The translations under genes were made by a program, and so were the position numbers. The notes below the pieces were generated by a model. The model was not told the origin of the DNA and did no database searches. It was given only the letters and a program-made list of their open reading frames with translations. Shown piece after piece: positions 2,189-20,000 of a stretch of DNA of 20,000 nt. Each line of letters opens with the position of its first letter. Positions within the stretch are counted from its first letter, which is position 1. This stretch comes from Chiloscyllium plagiosum (taxonomy: Eukaryota), in assembly GCF_004010195.1 (NCBI RefSeq), contig NC_057749.1:6694956-6714955 (forward strand), read 5' to 3'.

Positions 2189-3904
2189 AATGTAGCTTAA
2201 AATTCCATCATGAACAGAGTCTGATGCAATAGATTAGATGGGCTGAATGGCATTTCCTTTCTGTGTAACGTTTCAGTTCTCAAAGCCAATTTTGACCTAT
2301 TATGACACTTTACCAAACTGCAGCCCCAGTAAGATGCCTCATCTGCTGGGACCGGATTTTGGGAATTTCAACTGGTGCCTGACATGACCTTCAACCTCGG
2401 AAGAAAAGCAAAATTCACCTAACTGCCTGATTTTCTCTGCCAGTAGCTGATCCCTTTGAAAATGACTGTGACTGACTCCTGTGGCACTTGCATTGTTTCA
2501 ACACAGATAGACAACCGACAGACAACCATCCCTGTCTTATCACTGGTTTCACTCATGACAATAATCTGCATTCACAGGAACAAGGTCCACAAGTTTAGGT
2601 AGGACATTTATGTTGACCCCAGGAATAGATTAGGTGAAAAATGACAGCCAAAAGGGCAATGAGTGGACAGCTGAGCCTCATTTCATCGTGACCTTAACAT
2701 TTCCCTTGTCCCCCTGCTCAGGGAATCATCCCCTTATGCTTTCTGACCACCTCTAACATAACCGGCGTCGAATAATTGTGTCTCATAATTCACTGAAAAG
2801 CTTATTGAGCTAACTGGGCTTCCTTAAACACGACCTCACCTGAGTTATGAAGTATCTGTGTTCCCATCAAGTGAGTGCTAAAGTAATTGTGTTCCCATCA
2901 AGTACGGCAATCAGGAAACAGGGGGGAGCTGACACTTGGAGCTCTCCTAAAGCAGTAGAGATAACTAAGAATGGAGCTGCCCAACAGGTTGCCTGTTTGA
3001 ATGAAGTTTATAAGAGTGATGACATTCTTAATGGCCAGAGTGCTAACTGGTGAGCTACATTTGTGATATCTGAAGGACCTTTGCCGTACGCTAGAGGATG
3101 TCTGAGAAAAGTAATCTGAATGGGATGCAACAGATTTTCAAGAAATAAAAAGTCGACAGAAGGTGCTTAATGTAAGGGATTGAATCATGAAAATGTGAAG
3201 ACTGGAATACTGTTGTATTCATAGATCTAATGGTGGAATGGTTGAATAATGAAGGTGACATTTAAATGCAAGAGTGTACATGTTCAGAAAATAGCTATTT
3301 CTATTCAGTTTTCAATTGAAGAAATCTCGTATCCTACTGCATCTATCATGTTCCCCTTCCCAATTACACTCTCAGTATTTTTCCTAAACTGATGTGATGA
3401 ATACCATTCTCTCTGAGCCTGTCCCCTCCCCCCATCCCAAGCACTGCACACCTTTGGCACAGACCCACACATTTAATCACTCTTTAAATTCCACCTTCCC
3501 TTTTACCTTCTAAATTCTTGTACAATGTGCTATTGTTTTGAAAATTCTGACCAGAAATCCCACCAAAAGAGCAAATCTTGCTGTGAGCTCTGTGATCAAC
3601 CCTATGATTTATTTCATCCCAGCTGGATTGATAAATAGTTTTGTGTGATTACAATGGACAGATTACAACACACAAACAGCACACAGTCCACACAGCCTCA
3701 TGGGTGTGGATATCTATCACATGACTCTGCTGACCTCGATGTATTCCAGCTACAAATCTACCTTCCCCATTCCTTCATTTCTTCTCCCAAAAGTGACATT
3801 CTTCCAATATGATTCGTGACAATGAGAGGCATTGGCTGATTTGCTTTTGGGAAGTGTGTGGACATCAACTGACATACCAATGGGGCAAACTGGCAGCTTT
3901 CAGA

Positions 3905-3938
3905 TTCCTGATGAAGGGCTTTTGCCCGAAACATTGAT
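3905..3938 (+). ncRNA. Minimal hammerhead ribozyme motif (cleavage triplet decayed)
   Basis: CTGATGA (3908-3914), A, stem II GGGC-TTTT-GCCC, GAAAC (3928-3932), then ATT where sister copies have GTC, consistent with CpG decay. Confidence 0.7.
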
Positions 3939-4041
3939 TTTTTTTTCCTGCTCCTCAGATGCTGCCTGACATGCTGTGCTTTTGCAGCACCACTCTAATC
4001 TTGACTCTAATCGCCAGCATCTGCAGTACCCACTTTTGCCT
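3905..4041 (+). mobile_element. Short Penelope-like terminal element, family A, copy 1 (no inversion)
   Basis: Homologous to copies at 5264, 5570, 12095 and 19579. Probable TSD agctttcaga (3895-3904) / agccttcaga (4042-4051). Confidence 0.8.
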
Positions 4042-5134
4042 AGCCTTCAGAAGCAGCAGCCCTTATCAATTTTAATTCCCTCTTCCAACTCTGCTACATG
4101 GCCTGTTTGAAGGCACAGATGCCAACTAAAGGGCCCATTTCCCAACACAGCTGAGAGGAGTCATCTTGCCAAATGACCAATGCCAGATCTTCCTGTCCTG
4201 TGCCAGTTAGCTCACAGAAACTAGGTATCCCTGAAGCGCAAGGAAACAAGGTGCCACATTCCTCAATGTTTACTAGATTGACGTTACAGAAAGCTTAAAT
4301 GGGTGTCTACTTCATTGTCTTTGTGCAGAATATCACTCTTAGGATTCAGTTCGGAATGTTTCTAATTAAAGCCATGAGAGTGGTGGGGATGGTGGGAATA
4401 TGAATGCTTCAGTATATTTGTTATGTGCATTGATTGTCCATTGTGAATTCTAACATGGGGCTACACATGTAGCAAATGGAATGACAAAATCTGAAGGAAT
4501 AGGATGTTCAAATGTCAACCGGTCTGGCTTTGCCACTGAATACCAGCTTAGCTACTCATCCAATCTCAAGGATCCACTGTACCTGAGGGTTACAGAGACA
4601 TCCAAGCTTCTTCAATTAACAATTTTCACCAAAGATAAATTTAAAATGAACAAAACAGAACAAATTAAGTGGTTCATATGCTGGCACTTATGCATGCTGG
4701 GATAGAAATAACAATCATGCTCATTTTAGTCTCCATTGAACGCAAACACTGCAGCTTTTTCTGATACCAGAAATGAAACACAATCACGACTGGCAACCCC
4801 ACAGCAACACCAATATCCATCGGAGGACCCTTTTCATTTGCTTTGCGATCTTCGCAGAGCTACAATGAGCTACAGTAAATGAGGTAACACAAAATTGCCT
4901 TGCAGTATGCAACCCTTGGCCTGTTAAACCCTGCCGCTCTCACTCACGCCTTGCACTCTTCAACTCTTGTTGAAGTTTATGTTAAGCTTAATGGACTCTC
5001 CCGGGTTGAAGGGGGAATGCAATTGTGGGAATATTGCTTTGCACAAGGTTTTGTAGCGTGCCAGGGGCAATTGTGAAGACGGTCTTAAGTTAAAGCAAAG
5101 GAAAATTGCAACATTTTCTTCCACCTTCACAATT

Positions 5135-5243
5135 TTTTAATCTTTTCTGATCAACTGGTTCAGAGACGTTATTGCACATGTCTGGAGTAGGTGGGTACTG
5201 AACCTGTCTCCTGGTAGGGACCCTACCATTGTATCACAAGAGT
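5135..5243 (-). mobile_element. Short (~110 bp) tRNA-derived SINE, diverged
   Basis: Minus strand CTCTTGTGATACAATGGTAGG (A-box-like)...GGTTCAGTACCC (B-box-like)...GTTGATCAGAAAA. Related copy at 16406-16495. Confidence 0.55.
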
Positions 5244-5263
5244 CCTGACTGCACAGTTTTGAT

Positions 5264-5424
5264 CCAAGGAGCAGGAGAATTGACATTTCGGGCATGAGCC
5301 CTTCTTCAGGAATTCCTTCAGAAACGTCGATTCTCCTGCTCCCTGGATGCTGCCTGACCTGCTGCACTTTTCCAGCAACACATTTTCAGCTCTGATCTCC
5401 AGCATCTGCAGTCCTCACTTTCTC
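5264..5424. mobile_element. Palindromic Penelope-like element, family A, copy 2
   Basis: Inverted arm 5264-5312 joined through GGAATTCC to a forward arm. Perfect 15-bp TSD ctgcacagttttgat (5249-5263 / 5425-5439). Minus-strand hammerhead core CTGAAGA-A-GGGC-TCAT-GCCC-GAAAT-GTC at 5282-5309. Confidence 0.85.
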
Positions 5425-5569
5425 CTGCACAGTTTTGATGACTATATCCCACCAGAAGCTTTATTTCTGTGCTATGTTACAGCATGATCTTGCAGGAGAA
5501 ATCAATTTAGATCAAATATATTGAAATATTTAGGAGAGGAATAAAAAACAATCAAACGTTTTGAGCAGG

Positions 5570-5674
5570 AGGAGAATCAATGTTTCGGGTACGATGCTGT
5601 CTGACCTGCTGTGCGTTTCCAGAACCACATCCATTGACTCTGATCTGAAGCATCTGCAGTCCTCACATCCTGCT
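5570..5674. mobile_element. Inverted/deleted Penelope-like element, family A, copy 3
   Basis: Short inverted arm (aggagaatcaatgtttcggg) plus forward arm gatgctgtctgacctgctgtg...gcatctgcagtcctcac. 16-bp TSD aaa(c/t)gttttgagcagg (5554-5569 / 5675-5690). Confidence 0.8.
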
Positions 5675-6127
5675 AAATGTTTTGAGCAGGGACATTAAGT
5701 AAATTTCTAAGTTGGGGATGGACATGCTTTATTCAATTTAATTTTGAATGGAAGGAGAGACGAGCCAGAATTGAGGGCCAGTCTTAGGGTTTTTGGATGA
5801 AAATTCTAAGTATTGAAGCATTTTAGTGCCTGAGGGGTTTTATTTCTGCGCATTAAACTCTGTAACAATTTCTTTAGCAGATGTCTTTTATAGTGTGGAT
5901 GTGGACTCCGGGAAGAGATGGGACTGGTCTAAAGGCAGGCTAATTCTTCAAGAATCTGAACTGATTTATGGGTTTTATGCTAAAAAATATTTTACCACTG
6001 AATGTAAATCCCGAGGGAAGCAAATAAGTCCTGACGTTCCTTTCCAGCTGCTTGTTGCTCTATCTCAATTGCACTCCTTTCCCATTGCCTATATTGTGAA
6101 TGTAATGAGGTCAGGCAAGTAGACCTC

Positions 6128-6732
6128 TGTCCTTTAACAAGGTTATGTTGTCCTTGGCTTTTTTTTTCAGTGAGCTTGTAAAAGACAGATTCCAAAAAGT
6201 CCAGGTTTTGATAGGTCTTAGAGCCAATTTGATTACAGCTAACAGACACTGCCTCAGGCAAAAGGCTTTTATGTTTTAAAAAATGTTGCTTGTACACTGA
6301 AAGGGGAGTGGTCAGTTCTCCCAGCTCAGCTCTTCTCTGGTTTGGCTTGTTGTAAAAGCTACTGGACCCAAAGAAACAGGTCCAGGCTGACACTCTCTGA
6401 CTTCTCTCCTTTAAGACCCTGTGTTTGATTTTACCTTTTGTGCCAAACGGGTGTTTATTTGAAGTGTTGCAAGTATTTGTTACGGCATCATTAAGCTGGG
6501 AAAATTTGCTGGGTTTGCGGAAAGGTTAAGTTATTCTATATTCTGGTCTCTCTTGTTTGTGTTTCATTTGGTAACCTTGTAAATAAATGCTGTTTTGTTT
6601 GAAACTAAGTGGTTTGACCAGCAGCATTTCTCCTGGAATATCCACCTTAGATCTGCTTAAAACAATGAGCAAAGTTAGGGTCTGGGCTACCTCATTGAAA
6701 TGTTTTGAGGGGATCTGGCCTGGTCCATAACA
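6128..6732 (+). mobile_element. Solo LTR (inner, 605 bp; Gypsy- or ERV-type)
   Basis: TGT...ACA termini, 4-bp TSD CCTC (6124-6127 / 6733-6736), AATAAA at 6582-6587 followed by GT-rich sequence. Confidence 0.8.
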
Positions 6733-6798
6733 CCTCATAGAATATATATTCCCTGATTGGTGCTGTTAATTTTCAATCAGGGAGCCCCTGGCTGATAA

Positions 6799-6919
6799 GT
6801 TTGGAGGGATATGGGCCGGATGCTGGCAGGTGGGACTAGATTGGGTTGGGATATCTGGTCGGCATGGACGGGTTGGACCGAAGGGTCTGTCTCCATGCTG
6901 TACATCTCTATGACTCTAT
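6799..6919 (+). mobile_element. Young, heavily 5'-truncated CR1 3'UTR
   Basis: GTTTGGAGGGATATGGGCC...GGACCGAAGGGTCTGTCTCCATGCTGTACATCTCTATGACTCTAT, homologous to the tails of 619-1182 and 1775-2188. CpGs retained. Confidence 0.9.
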
Positions 6920-7296
6920 ATAAACAGGAGGGTCAGATATCCTTTTCACTTGAGGGAGCTGGATCAGTGTCAAGGACTCTCCATATGTAAATAAAGGGTG
7001 ACTTGCTGGTGGGATATCAGCGGAGTTATTTCAATCCCCTTCTTTCTCTTTGACCATTCTCTCTTCCTCACTGAGCCCCTCCATCCCTCCTGGCCTCTTC
7101 TTCCTCACCGCCCTACTCCTCCACCCAACTGTTTGTTTGTGGAATTGGTGTGGAACATCTCAGGCCAATTGATGGGTGTCCTTATCTCAGTGACAATAGG
7201 CTGACACTGCCTGAGGCCCAAGTTTGAGTGAACCTCAGGATGGAAGCAGACAAGATGCGTTTCTCCCAGTGAGTACTTTTTTTGAAGTCTCCCACT

Positions 7297-7339
7297 CCGC
7301 CATTTTAACCTGGTTAAAAACACTACAGAAACAGGAAGT
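7297..7339. promoter_or_regulatory. YY1 plus ETS motif pair with palindrome
   Basis: CCGCCATTTT (YY1 consensus) 7297-7306, palindrome TTTTAACC-T-GGTTAAAA 7303-7319, ACAGGAAGT (ETS) 7331-7339. Confidence 0.35.
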
Positions 7340-7859
7340 ACAGGGACATATCAAACATGATTGGATATTAGCATGGCTTAAATCCCAAACCCTGAGTAAT
7401 GATAATTTTATATATATACATATATTAGTGACTTATATTGTTCACTTAATAGCATCACTTTTGACTTGAAATGGAGCGAAAATGCTCTGATGATCCGATG
7501 GGATTGTGCTGGGATTTTGTGATAGAGAAGCATACTGGCAATTTTGTGTCACATTTTTTCAAAAGGATTTTGATGTAATGGGATGATATGCGATAATACT
7601 GGAAATGCATGAACATCAGGTACTCTGTTATGACTCAAGTGAAAAAGGTCCCTGAATTTCTTTGCTACTTTTGTAGATAATCATTAAAAATGGAGACATG
7701 AAAAAGGCATCACTTGCTCACATAGATACTCATAACCAGTGGTGAAATAGCAAGGAGATTGCAGGAATAAAGCCAACTGTATATCCATTTTTTTTCTCAA
7801 GAATATATTACACATGTAAGAAGGCACCACAACACGTAACTCACACTACAACAGCAAAA

Positions 7860-8107
7860 AGGTCAAAGGTCACGATCTGGTCAAGGTAGACCAATCAGCA
7901 CTCCAGGTTTACTTACAACGACTACTAACGGTACCATGGGCAATAATATTCACGCACGTCACAACTGCAAATAAAAAACGTGACCCCACGTCATGCAACG
8001 CAGCGACAGTCTGTCACGTGACGTCATCAAATGACACCTTCACTGCAAACGGGCAACTTACGGGTCGGGACATGTCTCCCCCATGACTGTTAGAGTTGCT
8101 AGGTTAC
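7860..8107. promoter_or_regulatory. CpG-rich cis-regulatory module (promoter or enhancer)
   Basis: Perfect DR1 AGGTCA-A-AGGTCA 7860-7872, CCAATCAG 7891-7898, CCACGTCA 7986-7993, GTCACGTGAC 8013-8022 overlapping TGACGTCA 8019-8026, X-box-like GTTGCTAGGTTAC 8095-8107. About 14 CpGs in ~200 bp by eye. Confidence 0.7.
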
Positions 8108-8554
8108 ATCACAGAGTTTGAGAATGACTTGTGGTCATCTGGAGCTATGATTAGGCCCTGCCTGGTTTGGTTGTGGTTAGTTGTAAAAGAAGAAAAAATG
8201 TTTGGAGATGTAGAGCAATCCTGTTATCTTGACTTTGTATTTTTTTTTTAAAATGTCTTTTCTCTCTAGTCTTTCTTTCTATGCTAACAAAGCATTTTAT
8301 CTTGGTTGTACAAAACTGTTTCAACAACAAAAAAAGACATTCAACAGGGCGCAACAACAGAACTTACACAACAGAACAAGCTAATAATGTGCTCAAAGGG
8401 CATTATTACATCATTGGGTTCAACACTTGACTGACCCTCAGGACTGTACCAGAGCTTTACTTAATTGCCACAACATCTTACATCTCCAAGTAATTACTTC
8501 AGCACTTAAGCCTCACTTGGAATGTTGTGTCCAGTTCTGGCTAATACATTTTAA

Positions 8555-8702
8555 GGAATGTAGTTCTTAATTCTAAAGGAATCAAATGGTTTTGAGGAGA
8601 AAGTGGGAACAGAATACTGAGTTGGATGATCAGCCAAGACCATATTCAATATTGAAGCTGATATGAGGGGCTGAATGGCCTCCTATTATCTATGTTTCTA
8701 TG
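8555..8702 (+). mobile_element. CR1 3' end of a second subfamily
   Basis: GATCAGCCAAGACCATATT...GGGGCTGAATGGCCTCCTATTATCTATGTTTCTATG tail. Confidence 0.75.
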
Positions 8703-8822
8703 ATTTCAGGACCTTGGAGAAGGTGTAAAATACATTCCTCTGGATGCTAATGGGGATGAGTACTTTACTCATATGAAGAAAGTGATGAAACAGGGATTGT
8801 TCTTCTGCAGCATAGAATTTTT

Positions 8823-9110
8823 GATTAGATTCCCTACAGTATGGAAACAGGCCCTTCAGCCCAACAGGTCCACACCGACCCTCCAAACAGCAACCCACCC
8901 AGACCCATTTGCCTCCGGCTAATGCAGCTAACAGTATGGGCAATTTAGCGTGGCCAATTCATCTGACCTGCACATCTTTGGGTTGTGGGAAGAAACCGGA
9001 GCAACCCACGCAGACACGGGGAGAATGTACAAACTCCACACAGACAGTCACCCAAGTCTGGGATTGAACCCAGGACCCTGGTGCTGTGAGGCAGCAGCGC
9101 TAACCACTGT
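8823..9110 (-). mobile_element. HE1-type tRNA-derived V-SINE
   Basis: Minus strand: tRNA head with B box GGGTTCAATCCC, central GTGTGGAGTTTGTACATTCTCCCCGTGTCTGCGTGGG domain, CR1-like tail ending GGGAATCTAATC. Confidence 0.9.
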
Positions 9111-9749
9111 GTTGAGGGGAGGTTCGAGATATGCTTGAAATTGTAAGGAGTCTGACTGGGCAAAAAAAGGGAGTAATTGCTTTCACTTGCAGGAGTGACA
9201 GTAACCAGAGGACACAGAGATTTACAATGATTTGGCAAAAGGGACAGAGGGGAAAGGATGGGAATTATTTTCTACACAGCAAGTTATTATTATCCGAATG
9301 GTCTGCGGAAGCAAATTTAATAATAAATTTCAAGAGAATTGGATATGTATTTGAAAGGATAAATTGCTGGGCAGAGTGGGACAAATTGGTTAACACTTTT
9401 TGAACACTGGCACTGGCAAATGAGGAGGAGGATACCGTAAAACCTAAAGGTTTTTTTATCGTGAAAGCATTACATGCTTTGCAGCAGATTTTGCCACGTA
9501 AACCAGTTATTTTCTTAAAAAAAATCAAAGCTATTTTCAGAATGGGAAATTGAGTCCAATGAATCTGTCTCTTTTTAATAGATTTCTACCCTCTTGACCT
9601 TGGAATCGCACTCTTTTGTTCCTCTTTGCACAGGACAATTAGATACGTGCACTGTGATCCTATCCATTTGTCCAGACTGAACTCAATTCCTCAGGCGACT
9701 GCGCTTAGCTTTAAGAATACCTGCTCCTATGCAATTCTTCATCAGTAAA

Positions 9750-9973
9750 TGCACTACGTGGCTTGGCACTGACTAGTGTATGCTGGGGAGGTCCCAGATT
9801 TAATTAATGATCTGCATACTAATGCATAGCACAAGGAATGTGCTCGGTCTAAGGAAGCAAAACACAATACAGTCAAGTGTCCCATTTCTGATTACTTTTC
9901 ATGAATCCCTTATTAGAAGGTGTTGGACAAGTGGACTGTGAAGACTCAGTTAATGCATTCATGTGAAGAATAG
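9750..9973 (+). mobile_element. Highly decayed ancient SINE-like fragment
   Basis: Faint resemblance to LF-SINE-like shark repeats (GGAGGTCCCAGATTTAAT, ATGTGAAGAATAGG), from memory only. Confidence 0.25.
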
Positions 9974-10263
9974 GTATTTGAGTGCAGCATTGGAGAGCTA
10001 CCTTGCACTGCTGCAATGATTACCAGCATCAATTTAACACACTGTTCTTATTTGAAAACCATTCTGCTGTATCATGGAGAAACTATTGCATTTGAATTAA
10101 TTGAATTTAGAGTTTCTGCTCTCAAGTGGCTACATCAATTCAATTTTATTGAACGGTACGTTCCATGCGGTTAGGAATTTTACTGAAATTTGCAGCATTA
10201 TGTTGGACCATCTCCTCTTAAACAACTGGTGCCATTATATTAAAGTTACAGGAATCTTTAGGA

Positions 10264-10549
10264 ACGGCATGGTGGCTCAGCAGTTAGCATGGCTGCCTCA
10301 CAACACCGGGGACCCAGGTTCAATTCCACCCTTGGGTGGCTGTGTGGAGTTCCTATATTCTCCATGTGTCTACTTGCATTTCCTCTGGTTGCTCTGGTTT
10401 CCTCCCACAGTCCAAAGTTGTGCTTTAGCCATGCTAAATTGCCCATAGTGTACAGGGTTACAGGGATGGATCTGGGTGGGATGCTCTTTAGAGGGTCATC
10501 ATGGACTTGATGGGCTGAACAGCTTGCTTCCACACTGTCCAGATTCTAT
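10264..10549 (+). mobile_element. HE1-type V-SINE, near full length, diverged
   Basis: A box TGGCTCAGCAGTT, B box GGTTCAATTCC, GGTTTCCTCCCACAGTCCAAAG, CATGCTAAATTGCCC, CR1-like tail. Confidence 0.9.
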
Positions 10550-10932
10550 CTTAGTGTTGAATGCAAGATAACACAATTTAGCAGCTATTAAAGAAAATGA
10601 ATGGTAAAACACCTGGACATTAATCATTTACACGAAAGTGGCCACTTTGGAATGTAATTATTCTTAGGCCTAATACAGGAGGTCATTAGAGATTATGGAA
10701 AAAGAGGCGATATTGGACTTCCAAAGTCGATAGAATATAGAGAGACATTAAAACACTAATGATTAATTTCATTGCAACACAAAAGGTTAAATGGGGTTAT
10801 TTGATTTAAAAGATCATTGCATCCTCTAAATGATTTTTAAAAGTGTAAATTTAGGCTTAAAACTAAAGCTGAACAGTAGACAATTATTTTGTAGACAAAA
10901 AGTTACACATGTAAGGAATGCACTAACCTAGT

Positions 10933-11085
10933 AAAGCTAAATCCATCATGTTCAAGAAGACATTTGGTAAGTATATTGAGAAGAGGAATGGGTAAAATAA
11001 GACAGCTGTGATGTGGTGTTAGAACTGGCAGATATATGATGGGCTAAACAGCCTCATACTGTGTTGAACCTTACCGGATTTTATG
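10933..11085 (+). mobile_element. Decayed CR1 3' end
   Basis: MFKKTFGKYI-like ORF2 terminus followed by GATGGGCTAAACAGCCTC tail motif. Confidence 0.5.
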
Positions 11086-12094
11086 AAAAGTTAAAGATCA
11101 CACAACAACTCACTGGATTGCGACTCACTAAAGGCACCTGAAAGCTTTGTTACAGTCCTGACAGGTTTGTTCGAGAGGTCTGATCCCAGGACCCAGTCCC
11201 TGGCTGTCAGGTCAGGGGATAGCCATGAGTATAACAGCCTCCTTCAGTCAGCTTCAGGCATTACCGGGACTGCTGCAGTCGGCTGGCTTGTAACAAGCAA
11301 CATAAGCCACCTGTAGCCAGCCAGTCATCTCTCCACGGTTTGAGTGGGAGTCAAGACTTAGCAAGCACTGCCCAAATAGTAACCCCAACCCAGGATGCCA
11401 ATTTGTTGCAATGGAACCAAGTACTGAAGCACTCGGTTTTCTTGGGTCATTACAGAGGGCTGGTGTAGCATCATATTCAATCTCATTTTCACAACTTCAA
11501 TCAGCAGTGTCAATAGATGAGATCACCTGTGTGCATTGTAGATATACCATTCGCCCTTTTGTTAATTGGGTTTTGTGGAAAGGAAAGCATAAGAAGGGTA
11601 CAATAAAACAAACATCGTCAATGGCTTCTTAGCAACAATGCTAAAATGTTTGCTCTTGAATGGCAGAGGGGTAAACCAGCCGACTCCTGTTCCTATTCCT
11701 TACGACCTTTGACTGTGTTGGATTATCTGAACAAATACAGAACCTCATTTTAGTTCCATTGTCATGAGAACTCATTGATATCTATGTGGTCCCAGTTCTC
11801 TGCCAGTGACAACTTTGATTTGGCCTTTTCTTTTGTGTTCGATGAGAAAACGAAACCATTTATTCCCACCTTATTATGTGGTTTAATAGTTACCAGGGCA
11901 GAATTTGACCTTTGCATTAAAAGAAAAGGGAAGGAGGGGAAACTTCACTTGGAGTGTTACCTTATTCGAACACAAGTATCTAATGGCACAGACTTGGATC
12001 TGATTACAAGGGATCAGGTTAAAGAATCCATTTGCTGCTACTTTCACTTATCATGGAAGTAGGTTGTAAGTAGGTTTTGGGAGTATTTTTGTAT

Positions 12095-12282
12095 AATTGT
12101 GTTGCTGGAAAAGCGCAGCAGGTCAGGCAGCATCAAAGGAACAGGAGAATCGACGTTTCGGGCATAAGCCCTTCTTCAGGAATCCTGTTCCTGCTCCTTG
12201 GACGCTGCCTGACCTGCTGCGCTTTTCCAGCAACACATTTTTCAGCTCTGATCTCCAGCATCTGCAGCCCTCACTTTCTCCT
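12095..12282. mobile_element. Young palindromic Penelope-like element, family A, copy 4
   Basis: Near-perfect inverted repeat (tgtgttgctggaaaagcgcagcaggtcaggcagc, 12098-12131, versus gctgcctgacctgctgcgcttttccagcaacaca, 12204-12237). Perfect 13-bp TSD agtatttttgtat (12082-12094 / 12283-12295). Confidence 0.88.
12148..12183 (-). ncRNA. Minimal hammerhead ribozyme, core intact
   Basis: Minus strand AUUC-CUGAAGA-A-GGGC-UUAU-GCCC-GAAAC-GUC/GAUU. Palindromic ACGU helix III. Predicted cleavage between 12152 and 12151. Confidence 0.78.
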
Positions 12283-12386
12283 AGTATTTTTGTATGGTTT
12301 CACTTGATAGCAGGTAATTCCTGTTCCCTCTCCTCCTCATTTGTTCCAAAAAACACTTCTTGGCAGCCAGTGGGTGAGGATGGCCA

Positions 12387-12636
12387 GGGGGAAATCTCAA
12401 CAAGTGTCTGGCAAAAGCTAACAATAGCGTCACGTGCAAATAAGCTGCAAGTTTGCCTTGAGGTGGACAGCGCGCCTGGGCAAGGTAGCTCCTCATCCAT
12501 CTGGGACAAGTGATTGGTGTGGAACTCCCAGGAATGTCGGGGGCGGGGAGGGGGGGAGGTGAGGGATTTGGCTAGTTTACTCAGAGCGAGGAAGACCAGA
12601 GAAGAATGAGGAAGACTGAGTGAGGGGAAAGTCCCC
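12387..12636. promoter_or_regulatory. Promoter-like module with NF-kB, E-box, CCAAT and GC boxes
   Basis: GTCACGTG 12429-12436, TGATTGG 12511-12517, GGGGCGGGG 12540-12548 plus G-tracts, GGAAAGTCCC (reverse complement of GGGACTTTCC) 12626-12635, kB-like sites at 12389-12398 and 12520-12529. Confidence 0.6.
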
Positions 12637-12717
12637 TAACACTCTGGGTGGAGAGCAGGAAGCTGCCATTACCAGTTACAAAGTTGTACCTTTTTCCAGT
12701 CTATTTAGCCCATGCTT

Positions 12718-12846
12718 CATTACTAAACTGCCACTATTTAATAAACTGCATTAAAATCATCATTATTAAACTGCTGGTTTTTAATAATCAACTTTATAAC
12801 CATCATTATGAAACCATTGGTTTTTAATAAACTACTTTATAATCAT
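12718..12846. repeat. Degenerate 3 x 43 bp AT-rich minisatellite
   Basis: Units start at 12718, 12761 and 12804. Each reads CA-TTA(T/C)(T/G)AAA-N9-TTTAATAA-...-CAT with no indels. Confidence 0.85.
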
Positions 12847-13279
12847 CCATGTGTTCACCACTCCCCACCTCTCCTGTTTTTTTTGGTTAAACTGTGACTC
12901 TCAAACTCAAACTTTGGAATGTTTAAAACAGCTAATATTGAGTCACTGAGTGAATAAGTCCATTTCTGACTCCATCACTTAAATCACCAATGCACCCCGT
13001 TATGGAGAACTTGCCCTCATCCTGCCAGCTGTGTTCTTGTTTTGGAAGGTTGAGGGTTCAAATCTTGCCCCAGTGACCTGGGCACACAAGTTAAGCCTGA
13101 ACTTTACTCTGAGTGTATTACCTTTCTCCCATCTTGGGTGGACATGAGAGATACTGAGGAGTTCTCCCTTTTGTAATCTCAACTAACAGCACCATATAAA
13201 AACAGAATTGTCTGGTCACGACCTGATGGCTGTTTGGAGGAACGTTGCCATGCGCACACACTTACTTTATCCTTTCCTG

Positions 13280-13605
13280 GCATGTGGACAAAATCAGCAT
13301 TTTAATCCATCCCTTGCATTGAGTGGCTTGTTGTACCATTTCCTATGACATTTAAGACTCGACCACTGTCAGGAGTCAAATGTAGGCCAGACCAGGTAAG
13401 GATAGAAAATTTTCTTCACGAAAGTCAACCTGTTGGGTTTTTGCAATACTCATCCAAGGTTGCCTGGTCACTGTGACCAAGAAAAACTCCTAATTCCAAA
13501 ATATATAATTGAGATTAAATTCCAACAACTACAATGGTGAGATCTGCACCCATGACCCTGATAGTGTTATTTGGTATTCTGGATTTAGTGACATTACCAC
13601 TTCAC
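13280..13605 (-). mobile_element. Decayed L2-tailed tRNA SINE (same family as 16991 and 17710)
   Basis: GGAGTCAAATGTAGGCCAGACCAGGTAAGGAT (13371-13403) is the reverse complement of ATCCTTACCTGGTCTGACCTACATGTGACTCC near 17208-17240. Confidence 0.7.
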
Positions 13606-13654
13606 TATGTTTGTCCCTATAGGGCTGGCATTGTGTTTCCAGCACTGAAGCACA

Positions 13655-13984
13655 CAGAGCCCCTACAGTGTAGAAGCAGGCGGTTCAGCCCATTGAGTCC
13701 ACACCGCACCTCCAAAAAGTATCCCACCCTACCCTATAACCCTGCATTTCCCATAGTTAATCCACTTAGCCTACACATCCCTGGACACTCTGGGACAACT
13801 TAGCATGGCCAATCCACCTAACCTGCACATCCTTGGACTGTGGGAGGAAACCGGAGCACTGGGAAGAAAACCACGCAGACATGCGGAGAATGTGCGTACT
13901 CCACATAGTCGCCTGAGGGTGGAATCAAACTCGGGTCCCTGACGCTGTGAGGTCGAAGTGCCAACCACTGAGTCACTGGGCTGC
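13655..13984 (-). mobile_element. HE1-type V-SINE, near full length
   Basis: Minus strand tRNA head GTGACTCAGTGGTTGGCAC...GAGTTTGATTCC, V-domain core, CR1-like tail. Confidence 0.9.
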
Positions 13985-14060
13985 ATTGATAAATACTTAA
14001 TTTGGACGTGCAGTGCATTGCAATAGCCTGAGATTGTGAAAATGCAATTCTTTCGGTTAT

Positions 14061-14120
14061 TTAGAGTCATAGATTCACAAAGTGTAGAAAAGGCCCTTTG
14101 GCCCATTGAGTCTGCACGAA
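14061..14120 (-). mobile_element. Short CR1/SINE 3' tail fragment
   Basis: TAGAGTCATAGATTCACAAAGTGTAGAAAAGGCCCTTTGGCCCATTGAGTC matches the shared CR1/HE1 tail. Confidence 0.65.
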
Positions 14121-14241
14121 CAATAACTACCCCTAAAGGCGTGTTAATCACTTATTCCTGTATTTTGCTGCTGTTTTCCAGATTTAGCCAGCAACCTAAT
14201 GAAGGTCTCCTCCTGAGCTGTAACCAGTCTATCAATTTGGG

Positions 14242-14472
14242 AATGGAAACTGGAAGAACTGCTGATGCTGTAAAGAAGTTTCTGGAAAGATTCTGCGGGT
14301 CTGGCAGCATCTGTGGAGAGAGAAAGCAGTTAACATTTCAGGTTGAGCGAGCCTTCCTCAGAACTAGGAACTGGAATTCTGAGGAAGGGTCACCAGACCC
14401 GAAATGCTAACTCTGATTTCTCTCCACAGATGCTGTCGGACCTGTTGAACTTTTCCAGCAATTTCTGTTTTT
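14242..14472. mobile_element. Palindromic Penelope-like element, family B, with a decayed hammerhead core on each arm
   Basis: Inverted arms (cagcatctgtggagag / ctctccacagatgctg). Plus core CTGAGGA-A-GGGTC-ACCA-GACCC-GAAAT 14379-14405, mirrored at 14329-14361. TSD gtctat(c/g)aa(t/c)ttggg (14227-14241 / 14473-14487). Confidence 0.8.
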
Positions 14473-15555
14473 GTCTATGAACTTGGGGTCTATTTGGTAG
14501 AGCTTACTGGGCAGTGACTTTCCAAACTTGGAACTTCTGAAAGGGTTGCTAAAGTAATTCAGGAACAGTTTGTTGTAAATCACACTGCACTATGCCTGGT
14601 GTCAGACTGAGAGTGAGCTGTAAGTCTCCACAAGAAACAGACAATAAGCGAGACTCGATACCAACTATGTTTCTCTGGGAAGTAACTTTCCATTTAGTTG
14701 CTTTAGTACAGTATGGAAGGGACATATGAACATTCGGTCTCTTACTCCCAGTTAATTAAATGATCACAGTGTGACGCCAGCAGTGTGCAGTTTCCCAAAC
14801 AACTTTTTAACACTCTCTGGCCCATTTTATGATTTCATCCTATGTCCACTCTGAGCAAAAATGTGGTGCTACAAAGGAAAACTTTCATGACCTTACCGAA
14901 TCACATTTTCCTTCATGACAGAAAGTATTATTGCACTCATCAAATTGCTATAAACTTCAACAAATATAGGAGACAGCACGCACCCTGCAAAGGTTTGGTC
15001 AGTTGCATTATGCTGTTACTAAATGGATGTTATCCCCCGCATAAACTTGGGGGGGATGAAAAATCAAATAACTTCAATGAAGCAGAGGAATTTGGAATGT
15101 TAAAGGGACCTTACAATAATGAAGGATCTTTTAATCCTCTTACATGAGCTGATAAACGCACTGCCTTCAATACAACAATCAAAGGCATAATGTCCCAATC
15201 AAAGCTTGAAATGGGTTTTTATAAATAAGATAACAAAATAGGTCAGTGTCTCTTTAACATTGGAGCTGAAGTCTAAATACTAACTGGTTTGACCACAAAT
15301 GTCTAACTTGATGATTTCTTCATTTTAAGAATACGTTTTAGTCTGGGGATTGAAGTTTTAAAAAGTGGAAGTATTTGGTTTAGGAGGGTGACTGAACACA
15401 CTTAAAGGGTTTGCAATCCATTGGGAGTCTTTGTTTATGTAATAAAGGGTGAAGTGGGTAATATTGAACAATGGGGCTTGAAGAACATTTTTGCAAAATA
15501 TGGTATTGTTAGTTGTACTTGCTTTGTTTAATTCTTGGACATTAATAGTTAGTGC

Positions 15556-15770
15556 TTTTTGAGAAGATTTGTAGCTCAGGTTGGTGATAAGTATGTAAGT
15601 TAGCTCGCTGAGCTGGAAGGCTTGTTTTCAGATGTTTTGTCATCATGACTAGATAACATCATCAGTGAAAGCCTCTGGTGAAGCGCTGGTGGTATGTCCC
15701 GCCTCTCTATTTGTAAGTCTTCGTTTCTGAAGGTGGGTGATGTCATTTCCTGTTCGTTTTTTCAAAGGAA
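15556..15770 (-). mobile_element. Penelope-like terminal fragment, family C, with decayed hammerhead motif
   Basis: Minus strand CA-CTGATGA-T-GTTATC-TAGTCAT-GATGAC-AAAAC-ATC-TG (15629-15667): 6-bp stem II, with G12 and GUC altered in a CpG-decay pattern. Boundaries approximate. Confidence 0.65.
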
Positions 15771-16336
15771 GGTAAACTGTCTCAGTTAATAATTGGACAT
15801 CTGAATCTTTTCCCCCCCACAAATAGCCTCCCTCAAGATCTTCCTGGCTGCTGTTCTGTTCAGGTGGGCTTTGCAAGATGGAAGGGTCCTCTCTTTACCT
15901 TTTAGAAAGAGCAGCGCTGTTCCTGAGGACAAAGGAATGATTGCACCTCATAGCCATTCTGAAGTAGGACATGTTGCTACACAGCAAGATCCCACAGGCA
16001 GCCTCAAGATCAAATCAGCTGAGTTGAAATCTGACATGGAAACACTGACTATAGTTTTCCTTTAAAGTTGCAAATTTATTTATTCCTATGCTTCATGACG
16101 TGAAAATATTCATCCAGTTTAAAAGTATATCAGAATGCCATTTTGATTTGGCAAGTTATGACCTGGAGATTTGATATTGTTTTATCCTTAAAATCAAATC
16201 ATCTCTCAAGTTTGATGAACTTGGGCATTATTTTTCTGCACACTATTTTGCACTGGACAAAATAATCCTTTTTAAAAGACATCAATCTCCACAGACAACT
16301 TGCATTGTCAAGTTTATGTGACTTCATCGGAACAAC

Positions 16337-16351
16337 TGCCCCCTCTTGTGG
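16337..16351 (-). promoter_or_regulatory. Candidate CTCF site
   Basis: Minus strand CCACAAGAGGGGGCA versus consensus CCASYAGRKGGCRS (2 deviations). Confidence 0.4.
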
Positions 16352-16405
16352 TACAGATGTGAATCACATCTATCTATCAACTCGATCACATCAGGTTCCT
16401 GTTGA

Positions 16406-16495
16406 TATTTTTAATCAACCTGCCTCCTTTGGAATAGGTAGGACTTGAACAGGTAAGCTTTCCAGCTCAGAGATAGGGAAACTACTACAACGGCC
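16406..16495 (-). mobile_element. Short tRNA-derived SINE, decayed (family of 5135-5243)
   Basis: Minus strand GTAGTTTCCCTATCTCTGAGC...GTTCAAGTCCTACC...CAGGTTGATTAAAAA. Confidence 0.5.
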
Positions 16496-16546
16496 TCAGC
16501 TCTATTTGGAACAAAGCCTATACAAATTGGCATTTACTTCTGATTA

Positions 16547-16803
16547 GTGGCTCAGTGGTTTGCACTGCTGCCTCACAGCAACTGGGCCCCAGGTTCGATT
16601 CCAGCCTCGGACGACTGTCTGTGTGGAGCTTGCACATCCTCCCTGTGTCTGCGTGGGTTTCCTCCCACAGTCCAAATATGTGCAGGTTAGGTGAGTTGGC
16701 CATGCTAAATTGCCCATAGTGTTAGGTGCATTAATCAGAGGGAAATGGGTCCGGGTGGGTTACTCTTCGGAGGGTTGATGTGGACTTGTTGGGCCGAAGG
16801 GCC
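16547..16803 (+). mobile_element. HE1-type V-SINE
   Basis: A box TGGCTCAGTGG, B box GGTTCGATTCC, conserved core. Tail truncated at GGGCCGAAGGGCC. Confidence 0.92.
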
Positions 16804-16990
16804 CATTATTTTCCCTCCCGCAGCACCATCATTGACTGATATTTTCTATCTCCCACCGGTTGAAATGTCAGGAGCCAGGTAACATCATGAGATTAGTAAG
16901 AGCTTGCTGTCTCATAGTGTAGACAACCCGTGCTGTTACCCCACATTGGTGATACTAGGATAAAAAAAATCAACGTCTTGGTCAGTATTA

Positions 16991-17337
16991 GGGAGGCGAT
17001 GGCCTAGTGGTATTATTGCTGGACTGTTAATTCAGAGACCCAAGTAATGCTCTGGGCACCTGGGTTTGAATCCCACCATGGCAAAAAGATGGAATTTAAA
17101 CTTAATTAATATCCGGATTTAAGAATCTAATGATGACCATGAATCCAGTATCAAGTATTGGAAAAACCCATCTGGTTCAATAACCCCCTTTAGGGAAGGA
17201 AACTGTCATCCTTACCTGGTCTGACCTACATGTGACTCCAGACACACAGCAATATGGCTGACTCTTAACTGCCCTCTGGGCAATTAGAGATGGGCAATAA
17301 GTCCTGCCTAGCCAGTGACACCCTGATCGAATAAAGA
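16991..17337 (+). mobile_element. tRNA-derived SINE with L2-type 3' tail
   Basis: A box TGGCCTAGTGG, B box GGTTTGAATCCC. Aligns end to end with 17710-18030. A-rich end. Confidence 0.85.
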
Positions 17338-17361
17338 AACAAATTAATAAAGGGGAAAAGA

Positions 17362-17690
17362 AAGAGGTTTAGGAGCTTCGAAAAGGGGAGAGAGAAACGA
17401 AGCGATTCAGCTGAAAGTATGGGATGGAGAAACGGAAATCAGAGATGTGAAACAATTGGAGTGGCCCAGAGGTATCCACAAATAAATCTGGAATGGCAGA
17501 TGGTGACAAGAAAACATAAAACCATTGAGGGGTTTAGGATCGAAGGAGGGCATTTTAAAATACAGGTGTTGCCATTTGGGTGCCCATGTCAGTGAGCATT
17601 GAGAGGGGAACTGGGAGATCAGGATTCAGCAAGATTCAGTATTCAGGCTGCATGACTAAAGTAACTCATTTAGAGATGCTTGCATCAAAT
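17362..17690 (-). mobile_element. Highly diverged L2-like LINE fragment
   Basis: Purine-rich segment with motifs (GAGGTTTAGG, CAGCTGAA, CCATTGAGGGGTTT, ATTTTAAAAT, GCCCATGT) resembling antisense L2 ORF2 end, from recall. Confidence 0.4.
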
Positions 17691-17709
17691 TGAAGAGTCC
17701 TGTAGAGTG

Positions 17710-18030
17710 GAGAGGTGATGGCCTAGTGGTATTATCACTGAACTATTAACCCCAGGTAATGGTCTGGGGACCTGGTTTCAAATCCTGCCATGGCAGCTGG
17801 TGGAGTTTGAAACCAATCAAAAATCTGGAAATAACAGTCTAACAATAAACATGAATTGATTGTCATAAAAAAACCCACCTGGTTCACTAATGCCCTTCAA
17901 GGAAAGAAACTGCCATCCTTACCCGGCAAGGTCTGGGCCCACAGCAATGCAGTTGACCCTTAAATGCCCTCTGGGCAATAAATGCTGGCCTGGCCAGTGA
18001 TGCCCTTATCCCATCAATGAATACAAAAAA
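17710..18030 (+). mobile_element. tRNA-derived SINE with L2-type 3' tail, second copy
   Basis: GAGGTGATGGCCTAGTGGTATTAT head, AAACTGCCATCCTTACC, GGCAATAAATGCTGGCCTGGCCAGTGATGCCC, A-rich tail. Confidence 0.85.
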
Positions 18031-18713
18031 AACTACCAATTTACCAACTTTCTTTGCCTGTCCTGTTCTTGCAATTATAGCCAGAATTGCTTTATTTCCC
18101 AGTGACTCATACTGCCTGATACTGTAAGTGAAAGTACCTGAAGTAAATCGACACAGTATACATACTGACACACATACAAACTAATGCTCCACTACCCTGA
18201 TGTCTAATGCTTAAACTCAATAAGGACAAGTATTCAAGAAATCAAAAAAACACAGGTTATGCATAAATTAGAAACCAAACGTACCTTGGCAATGGTTTTA
18301 AATGAGCAAACATTGAAATATAAGACAAAACAAACAGTCTTGTTGAACACAGACATTATTCCCTGCATCTCACACTCCAGTTTAGTCTCAAGGTAGGAGT
18401 TTCCCTGTTATCATGAGGTTGGGTTGGACAGGGCAACCTTTCACTGCATCTGGGAGAGCAGTGACCTGAGCACCATCTAGTGGGGATGTGCCAGCATTTC
18501 AGGCAAGACACAACTGCACTAAATACTGGAGGTTAAAAGGGAAATCTTAAGGCAGCCTCAGCTCCCCTGGGTTGACGTTGCCATACTTCTGACACAAACA
18601 TTTTTACGCGCATTTTGTGTGGTGCAGCTGTTGGGGGATGCACATTCGTATTCGAGGTCACTGTGACAAAGCTGGATCATATGGAACCGTTTGGACATTT
18701 AAATGATTTCTTC

Positions 18714-18917
18714 GTTGCACATTCTCCCAGTGTCTGCGTGGGTTTCCTTCCACGGTCCAAAGATGTGCAGGTCAGGTGGATTGGCCATGCTAAATTGCCC
18801 ATAGTGTTAGGTGCATTAGTCAGAGGGAAATGGGTCTGGGTGGGTTACTCTTCAGAGGGTCGGTGTGGACTTGTTGGGCTGAAGGACCTGTTTCCACACT
18901 GTAGGGGAATCTAATCT
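18714..18917 (+). mobile_element. 5'-truncated HE1-type V-SINE
   Basis: Starts in the central domain (TTGCACATTCTCCCAGTGTCTGCGTGGG) and ends GGAATCTAATCT. Confidence 0.92.
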
Positions 18918-19578
18918 TAAATTAACGCAACACTTACAATATGGTTCACCTACTGTTTGCTGAAGGTCAAGTAACTTTTTAGAAAGAAGTTCAGCAAAGC
19001 TTTTAGGGAGTTTAGGTTTATAGTCTATGAATGCTGGAAAACCTGGTTTTGAAGAGGCCTCTATCTAAGACAGTACCAACACCCCTTTCCTGACACATTG
19101 TTTTACAGACGTACGTAAGGAACACTCCCCCCAACTCCCTCTCTCAGCAGAAGTTTCTGGGATCTGTTAAACATCAGTACCACTGACTAATGTATAAATC
19201 CTGCAAAGCTGAACTCTTTCCAAAGATTCAGATCCAGCCCACTTTCAATTCAAGCTGAAGATCTTCCATCACCCTTGGCAATGATCAGCAATTTGATTTT
19301 GTTGATAGGAAACACTGGACCATGAGCAGTCACCAAATTCTGTCACATAAAAACAAAATACTGCAGTGGCCGGAAACAGACACACAATACGCTGCAGAAA
19401 CTCAGCAGGTCTGGCAGCTCATGCGGAGTGAGAAACAGAGTTAACGTTTGTGTCTTCCTCTGAAGTTCTGAGAAAGGGTCGGATTAGACACCAAATGTCC
19501 AATAGAACTCCTGAAGTTCTGAATAAGTCATGCTGGACTAGAAATGTTAACTTCATTTTTCTCTCTCCACAGATGTTG

Positions 19579-19722
19579 AGAAAGAAATACAGCAGGGGAG
19601 TTGACGTTTCGAGCATAAACCCTTCATCAGGACATTCCCCGGATGCTGCCTGACCTGCTGTACTTTTCCAGCGCCACCGTTTTCGAGTCTGACTCTGTAG
19701 CGTCTGTAGTCCTCACTTTCTC
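19579..19722. mobile_element. Inverted Penelope-like element, family A, copy 5 (nested)
   Basis: 18-bp TSD ctctctcca(c/a)agatg(t/c)tg (19561-19578 / 19723-19740). Forward arm ends gtcctcactttctc like its sister copies. Confidence 0.8.
19600..19632 (-). ncRNA. Minimal hammerhead ribozyme, core intact
   Basis: Minus strand UC-CUGAUGA-A-GGGU-UUAU-GCUC-GAAAC-GUC. Stem II kept through G-U wobbles, stem I weak. Confidence 0.68.
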
Positions 19723-20000
19723 CTCTCTCCAAAGATGCTGTCAGACTTGCTGAATTTCTCCAGCATTCTGTGCATCTGTATCCAATTTCATGCTTTATTC
19801 TCAGACCCTTGGCCGAAAGGAGTATCTTTTGCTTTTGTGCATGAGAAGAAGCCTCTCTACAACTCTCTCCAAAGATGCTGTCAGACTTGCTGAATTTCTC
19901 CAGCATTCTGTGCATCTGTATCCAATTTCATGCTTTATTCTCAGACCCTTGGCCGAAAGGAGTATCTTTTGCTTTTGTGCATGAGAAGAAGCCTCTCTAC
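19723..20000. repeat. Exact 140-bp tandem duplication (second copy runs off the window)
   Basis: 19723-19860 is identical to 19863-20000. Confidence 0.95.

Follow-up and report, generated by a model that had tools for sequence, protein, structure and literature searches.

The window analyzed here is a 20,000-nucleotide (nt) stretch of Chiloscyllium plagiosum contig NC_057749.1 (positions 6,694,956 to 6,714,955 of the forward strand). It contains five homologous inserts, which start at positions 3905, 5264, 5570, 12095, and 19576 (the last was placed at 19579 in a preliminary description of the stretch) and which, to judge from their sequence, derive from the 3′ terminus of a Penelope-like element (PLE). 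The inserts are built from a unit of ~125 nt that extends from a hammerhead ribozyme (HHR) motif through to the 3′ end. We numbered unit positions along a natural long copy (locus L066), in which 1 is the C of the CUGA box and 125 is the 3′ end. The preliminary description had reported five homologous copies that share one 3′ end, carry target site duplications (TSDs), and have no poly-A tail, and all of this was borne out. The 24-mer that it quoted for the common 3′ end matches four times in the window with at most 3 mismatches, compared to zero matches in 200 shuffles; the copy at 3905 is a variant from an older subfamily and has the 3′ terminus ...GCAGTACCCACTTTTGCCT. TSDs were detected by script in four copies and by eye at 3905, and no poly-A tail could be read from the sequence of any of the five copies.

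The copy at 3905 (3905 to 4041, plus strand) is a plain sense unit that spans unit positions −3 to 125 and has no inverted arm. Its HHR (3908 to 3935, plus strand; CTGATGA-A-GGGC-TTTT-GCCC-GAAA-CATT, with the CpG decayed from ACGT) starts the insert at unit −3, and its putative TSD (3895 to 3904 versus 4042 to 4051) matches at 9 of 10 positions, which is under the threshold of the script. The other four copies have an inverted, 5′-truncated arm that adjoins the 5′ end of a direct arm. At 5264, the inverted arm (5264 to 5313, minus strand; unit −3 to 48) contains a complete HHR (5309 to 5282, minus strand) and is followed by a direct arm (5321 to 5425, plus strand; unit 21 to 125) that includes the ~35-nt tail; the TSD CTGCACAGTTTTGAT is perfect (15/15; 5249 to 5263 and 5425 to 5439). 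The inverted arm at 5570 is a fragment (5570 to 5592, minus strand; unit about 13 to 43) with a partial HHR only, the direct arm (5593 to 5674, plus strand) runs from unit 46 to an end with a decayed tail, and the TSD matches at 15 of 16 positions (5554 to 5569 and 5675 to 5690). At 12095, the inverted arm (12095 to 12183, minus strand; unit −3 to 85) lacks the tail and holds a complete HHR (12179 to 12152, minus strand), while the direct arm (12189 to 12281, plus strand; unit 34 to 125) ends with the tail, and the TSD AGTATTTTTGTAT is again perfect (13/13; 12082 to 12094 and 12283 to 12295). The entire 12095 copy is predicted to fold into one hairpin (−101.9 kcal/mol, z = −10.8). The first 15 nt of the last copy (19576 to 19590) could not be placed in the unit; they are followed by an inverted arm (19591 to 19632, minus strand; unit −1 to 40) with a complete HHR (19630 to 19603, minus strand) and by a direct arm (19636 to 19722, plus strand; unit 40 to 125), within a TSD that matches at 14 of 15 positions (19561 to 19575 and 19723 to 19737).

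The 5′ part of each copy consists of PLE sequence, either inverted or in sense orientation. No tRNA-like head of the type found in short interspersed elements (SINEs) was detected, as ARAGORN predicts no tRNA gene across the window (7SL and 5S heads were covered by the Rfam scans only), and Tandem Repeats Finder reports no tandem array at the five copies.

The HHR motif itself, CUGA(A/U)GA-A-GGGC-loop-GCCC-GAAA-CGUC, is present as previously described. The accompanying claim, that four copies have their 5′ end only a few nt ahead of the HHR, is true only of the copy at 3905. A complete CUGAAGA-A-GGGC-NNNN-GCCC-GAAA-CGUC is located on the minus strand in three copies (5264, 12095, and the one at 19576) and a fragment of it in the copy at 5570. 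Over the five inserts, most hammerheads thus run antisense to the insert that carries them, and the description of the family as headed by an HHR, which had overlooked the inverted arms, fits one copy in five. The proposed type of the ribozyme stood up better: the motif has the sequence characteristics of a minimal, dimer-type PLE hammerhead with a palindromic ACGU. Across 103 strict instances, the four sequence features of a minimal HHR are present, the spacer is A in 98, and GC accounts for 72 of the 10.1-11.1 pairs and GT for 21. The GAAA box is followed by CGTC in 46 of the 103 instances and by CATT, CATC, TGTC, or TGTT in 42, which are the forms expected from CpG decay. Stem II is double-compensatory (GAGC/GCTC) in only two instances, and covariation within the family is negligible; in another PLE family in the window, stem II is GGGUC/GACCC. 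A check against hammerhead models, suggested in the preliminary description, gave no match to Rfam hammerhead families at gathering thresholds or even at E ≤ 10, as expected because the motif lacks helix III.

A first look at the genome returned 1,813 candidate relatives of the 3905 type, some of which continue upstream in sense orientation. Walking upstream from one of them (L045:2085-2283) led to 30 loci, and eight of these were inspected for the order of their parts. In sense order, the long copies consist of an open reading frame, a C/T-rich 3′ untranslated region (UTR) of ~280 nt, the HHR unit, and the tail of the window copies. Across the HHR they read ...CTCATTC-CTGAAGA-A-GGGC-TCAT-GCCC-GAAACGTC..., followed by a tail identical to that of the window copies. 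The first Pfam scan, which covered 24 upstream frames, gave no matches, and the endonuclease was found only further upstream, where two loci match GIY-YIG (L089, 22.4 bits, E = 1.5e−4; L075, 21.5 bits, E = 2.9e−4; cutoff, 22.6 bits). The frame of the long copies aligns with residues 344 to 592 of protein P0001 (40% identity, E = 2e−52). This homolog and two others, P0002 and P0003, match the reverse transcriptase (RT) family RVT_1, and P0001 and P0002 match GIY-YIG as well. Because the unit is contiguous with a GIY-YIG frame whose homologs carry RVT_1, we identify it, on these sequence similarities, as the sense 3′ terminus of an endonuclease-bearing PLE, in line with the link to PLEs suggested earlier. 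None of the 54 tails with at least 300 nt of downstream sequence runs on into shared sequence or into a shared reading frame. The main sequence variants are common to short and long copies, in a small sample with a messy alignment. In several long copies, including L077 (positions 1 to 1498), L103, L111, L117, and L127, a run of N lies directly upstream of the HHR or of the 3′ UTR; some other N runs are exactly 500 nt long and resemble assembly gaps.

For a less biased view of the copies, we rely on a position-ordered sample, namely the first 40 exact-tail places along one contig (C1), which correspond to 39 loci. Foldbacks with an inverted arm occupy 22 of the 39 loci, long sense copies 6, simple copies that start at −7 to +5 another 6, and shorter copies 2; in the remaining 3, the upstream sequence reads N. 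At least about three quarters of the sampled copies are shorter than 230 bp. The 5′ ends are clustered: the arm that reaches further ends at −7 to +5 around the CUGA box in 27 of 30 short loci, namely 21 of the 22 foldbacks and 6 of the 8 short simple copies. The outer end of the inverted arm is located at unit 82 to 98, without the last ~35 nt, in 15 of 22 foldbacks. In five others the inverted arm is shorter (two of the five resemble internal deletions by eye), and in two it holds the whole tail. The direct-arm starts form a minor cluster at unit 31 to 34, just 3′ of the predicted cleavage site, which consists of 3 of 22 foldbacks plus the 12095 copy and is too weak to interpret. The inversion junctions differ in nearly all 22 foldbacks. 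The TSDs vary in length from 11 to 18 bp, and a TSD score of at least 12 was obtained by script for 21 of 45 copies, compared to 0 of 45 in a flank-swap control.

An earlier genome sample, made up of the best 30 matches, was biased toward one junction subfamily. About 24 of these 30 share the junction GCCCTTCTTCAG|AAACGTCG, with different flanks and TSDs in each. Copies with this junction fall into three variant groups, and both arms of a copy carry the same variant. A second junction is shared by L119/L120 and L124. A foldback family descended from a master copy was provisionally considered and then dropped: the junction GCCCTTCTTCAG|AAACGTCG is found in none of the 40 position-ordered places and in 38 exact copies genome-wide.

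The PLE family is very abundant in the genome, as had been anticipated. The exact tail 27-mer occurs 41,577 times in the 3.56-Gb assembly, an exact 22-mer internal to the unit 85,166 times, and an exact 22-mer from the 3′ UTR (−47 to −26) 19,175 times; the reversed-pattern controls of all three words gave counts of 0. By these word counts, coverage falls roughly four-fold across the 5′ edge of the HHR, a ratio that is inflated by foldbacks, in which the internal word counts twice. Raw RNA reads from a related organism (2,836 aligned) mirror this step, with a depth of 6 to 60 upstream of the unit versus 240 to 830 within it; they come from both orientations about equally and have loose ends clustered at −4, L−39, and L. 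Another sequencing run (X22) yielded no aligned reads. No accumulation of molecule starts or ends was called, nor one of read starts at the predicted cleavage site (after H17), for which single-cell poly-A reads are a poor test. The pattern looks like passive transcription of embedded copies and is not evidence of a dedicated transcript.

We propose that the five inserts are, very probably, dead-on-arrival and severely 5′-truncated insertion products of one very abundant endonuclease-positive (EN+) PLE. The mechanism that we envisage is modeled on the anole PLE, whose protein cleaves and extends both target strands, with reverse transcription starting at two adjacent internal RNA sites and the tail located between them (Frangieh et al. 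2024; PMC11167929). By analogy, the PLE ribonucleoprotein would cut the two target strands 10 to 17 bp apart, which would give rise to the TSDs, and each of the strands would prime reverse transcription, which would begin at two internal positions of the RNA ~35 nt apart. The cDNA from the distal site would become the direct arm with its 35-nt tail, and the cDNA from the proximal site the inverted arm without it. Both cDNAs would halt at or near the HHR and be joined there, leaving a foldback whose apex lies close to the HHR core, and the copy at 3905 would be the single-ended version of the same process. The anatomy of the copies, their connection with the PLE frame, the TSDs, the one-sided tail, the abundance, and the clustered ends are observed here, whereas two-strand priming and the cause of the cDNA stop at the HHR are inferred. 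Snap-back self-priming of a single cDNA was also considered and was rejected for most foldbacks, in which the inverted arm has sequence that the direct arm lacks; in many, the inverted arm holds the stretch from the CUGA box to stem II and the direct arm does not.

Several observations weigh against this proposal. Plain random truncation does not predict a sharp stop at −7 to +5, and a polymerase that arrives from the 3′ side would have met structure before it reached this stop, which is on the distant, 5′ side of the ribozyme. A single-cDNA snap-back cannot yield sequence that is present only in the inverted arm, and two-strand priming is borrowed from a lizard PLE. The recurrent junction suggests that some foldbacks may have been re-copied or that there may be a hotspot for the junction. 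The GIY-YIG scores of the two loci fall just under the curated Pfam cutoff. Finally, of the full-length PLE with GIY-YIG and RT domains and the same terminus, for which the preliminary description suggested a search, we recovered the GIY-YIG frame; an RT domain contiguous with the tail was not seen directly in the flanks, which reached the endonuclease part only and partly read N.

The sharp boundary, which agrees with the earlier claim that the 5′ ends are discrete rather than random, is also what would be expected of a dedicated non-autonomous RNA of about 130 to 190 nt that resembles a SINE or a retrozyme, has its own master copies (foldback masters among them), and is mobilized by PLE proteins acting in trans. 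The preliminary description favored a discrete lineage of this kind, which is extended here to foldback masters. The junction common to about 24 of the best 30 matches, which differ in flanks and TSDs, has 38 exact copies in the genome and could be read in the same way, as could the junction common to L119/L120 and L124, and a preprint (10.64898/2026.07.22.740005) describes tandem retrozymes as non-autonomous derivatives of PLEs. However, long PLE copies end in this unit, in sense and without a break, and the short copies have their main variants in common with them (with the reservation about sample and alignment given above). Junctions are nearly all different among the 22 position-ordered foldbacks, the recurrent one is absent from the 40 places, and its 38 exact copies stand against 41,577 tails. 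That both arms carry the same variant in each of three groups fits fresh formation from the RNAs of different subfamilies better than inheritance of a ready-made hairpin. There are also no tandem arrays at the five copies and no tRNA-like head in the window. We therefore consider a dedicated lineage unlikely, although limited re-copying of some foldbacks may occur; the element is of a known kind, and a separate SINE or retrozyme lineage is not supported.

The pronounced fold of the 12095 copy (−101.9 kcal/mol, z = −10.8) raises the further question of whether the foldbacks are hairpin-RNA or microRNA (miRNA)-type genes, or else DNA transposons with terminal inverted repeats similar to miniature inverted-repeat transposable elements. 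Sub-threshold Rfam matches to mir-505 (26.2 bits versus a threshold of 60) and mir-335 (24 versus 64) at 5259 to 5353 and 12110 to 12235 point in the same direction, but these scores are far under the gathering thresholds, and the weak miRNA-like matches arise because the copies fold as hairpins, which follows by construction from the inverted arm. Moreover, the elements are asymmetric, with the 35-nt tail at one end only and with variable inner junctions; their TSDs vary from 11 to 18 bp, and a series of 5′ truncations is typical of target-primed reverse transcription. We regard either origin as very improbable.

Under the proposed origin from an EN+ PLE, the boundary ~4 nt before the CUGA box might be where the PLE mRNA actually begins, in which case the unit would be a leader, formed by the hammerhead, plus the first ~27 codons and the short copies would be run-off cDNAs. 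We put this forward tentatively and think it somewhat doubtful. The boundary sequence is TCATTCC, which, if its A is placed at −4, we take to fit YYANWYY, the consensus of initiator elements. In all families in the window, a frame (MLPDLL.FSS...) that begins with an ATG at unit +44 continues through the unit end. Two families differ in this frame at 6 synonymous versus 3 non-synonymous codons out of 15. If this idea were correct, the unit would reach up to the internal start sites of reverse transcription, and most of the at least 85,000 copies would be, instead of random truncations, run-off cDNAs, primed on both target strands, from the start site nearest the promoter. PLE replication would then have a built-in, SINE-like short circuit that also seeds the genome with hairpins.

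The window also contains other repeats. Foldbacks are not confined to one family, since a further one (14274 to 14480, plus strand), which is outside the five, comes from a PLE family of its own. The complementarity between its arms is 77%, stem II of its sense HHR has 5 bp (GGGUC/GACCC), and the GCATCTGCAG tail is missing from its end. The last of the five copies interrupts another PLE-type unit (19392 to 19575 plus 19723 to 20000), with the insertion point at an ...CTCTCTCCA(C/A)AGATG site just before the start of a ATGCTGTCAGAC... frame. At locus L010, an insertion lies in a different PLE copy, at the corresponding site, AGATGCTG. Both cases are consistent with reports that PLEs tend to insert into copies of PLEs. 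The downstream part of the interrupted unit, from 19723 to 20000, consists of 2.0 repeats of a 140-bp unit at 100% identity and runs off the end of the window; the repeat begins with the ATGCTGTCAGAC... frame, which is open for at least 40 codons, and could be either a real partial tandem, similar to a pseudo-long terminal repeat, or an assembly artifact. An unrelated repeat family that starts with GTGGCTCAG..GGTTAGCA... is present in both orientations at 8832 to 9109, 10272 to 10538, 13660 to 13976, 16547 to 16817, and 18715 to 18907. It may be SINE-like; ARAGORN finds no tRNA in its copies. An AT-rich tandem repeat (43 bp, 3.0 copies, 79% matches) is located at 12717 to 12847.

The chief value of these observations lies in the correction of annotation: what was described as a new kind of short element is better annotated as PLE ends than as a new class of SINE or retrozyme. 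Beyond annotation, tens of thousands of natural insertion products fit the model of two-strand priming at two start sites, which so far is known only from in vitro work on a lizard PLE. A testable clue, either to the start of the PLE RNA or to a role in reverse transcription of the ribozyme together with protein, is offered by the sharp stop where the HHR begins. Long hairpins in such numbers may in addition be relevant to assembly errors and to small-RNA annotation in this genome.

A composite insertion of a comparable form is known from human L1 elements, in which twin priming produces a single insertion between TSDs, with a 5′ inverted segment joined to a 3′ direct one. The foldbacks described here have the same overall arrangement. 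Unlike the products of L1 twin priming, however, their two arms overlap extensively, as if the same RNA region had been copied twice, and the start of the inverted arm is fixed, at an internal position ~35 nt from the end.

The ribozyme motif resembles the minimal HHRs of PLEs (Cervera and de la Pena 2014; PMC4209133) in its CUGANGA and GAAA boxes, in the G10.1-C11.1 pair, and in the absence of helix III, in place of which the palindromic ACGU would pair in a dimer. In that study, most motifs are single and reside in truncated PLEs, sometimes paired on opposite strands, and the instances here are likewise mainly single, dispersed motifs in truncated PLEs, at times with two on opposite strands. 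The differences are that stem II of the putative ribozyme has only 4 bp here and that helix I is weak (about 2 to 4 bp). Our literature searches found no paper on shark PLE hammerheads. Animal non-LTR retrozymes are also HHR-bearing, non-coding, short, PLE-related sequences that co-occur with PLEs. Yet in the retrozyme literature (Cervera and de la Pena 2020, PMC7229834; 2026 preprint by Li, Clavereau and Pollet), retrozymes are head-to-tail tandem arrays with canonical type I HHRs and circular RNAs, whereas the copies here are single, dispersed, and flanked by TSDs, with a minimal HHR that is mostly inverted.

The closest likeness is to EN+ PLEs (Penelope/Poseidon and Neptune), and especially to the anole Poseidon element PAc. 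As in those elements, the frame has a GIY-YIG domain at its C-terminal end and homologs with an RT domain, a tail of ~35 nt lies between two alternative ends, and insertion into other PLE copies is found (the copy at 19576 and L010). The inverted 5′-truncated copies, the heavy 5′ truncation, and the variable TSDs are shared features as well: Craig et al. 2021 (PMC8557442) describe PLE copies as heavily 5′-truncated, often with an inverted 5′-truncated copy adjoining the 5′ end, and with a tail of 30 to 40 bp that is often at one end only. One further resemblance comes from the tail, in which GCAGCATC (unit 103 to 111) is complementary to GATGCTGC near the start of the MLPDLL frame (unit about 41 to 49); in the copy at 3905, these are positions 4018 to 4026 and 3956 to 3964. 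The predicted stem encloses the region between the two ends, with a fold z-score of only −1.46, and is reminiscent of the stem-loop where reverse transcription begins in the anole PLE. In PAc, the HHR cut site is 85 to 92 nt upstream of the reverse-transcription start, HHR cleavage is dispensable for insertion in vitro, and the ribozyme needs the protein (PMC11167929); here, the predicted cut site is 96 nt from the 3′ end, and the distance to the tail-less end is about 61 nt. What distinguishes the present family from the known EN+ PLEs is its occurrence in a cartilaginous-fish genome, its very high copy number, and the shortness of its copies, at least about three quarters of which, in our sample, are under 230 bp.

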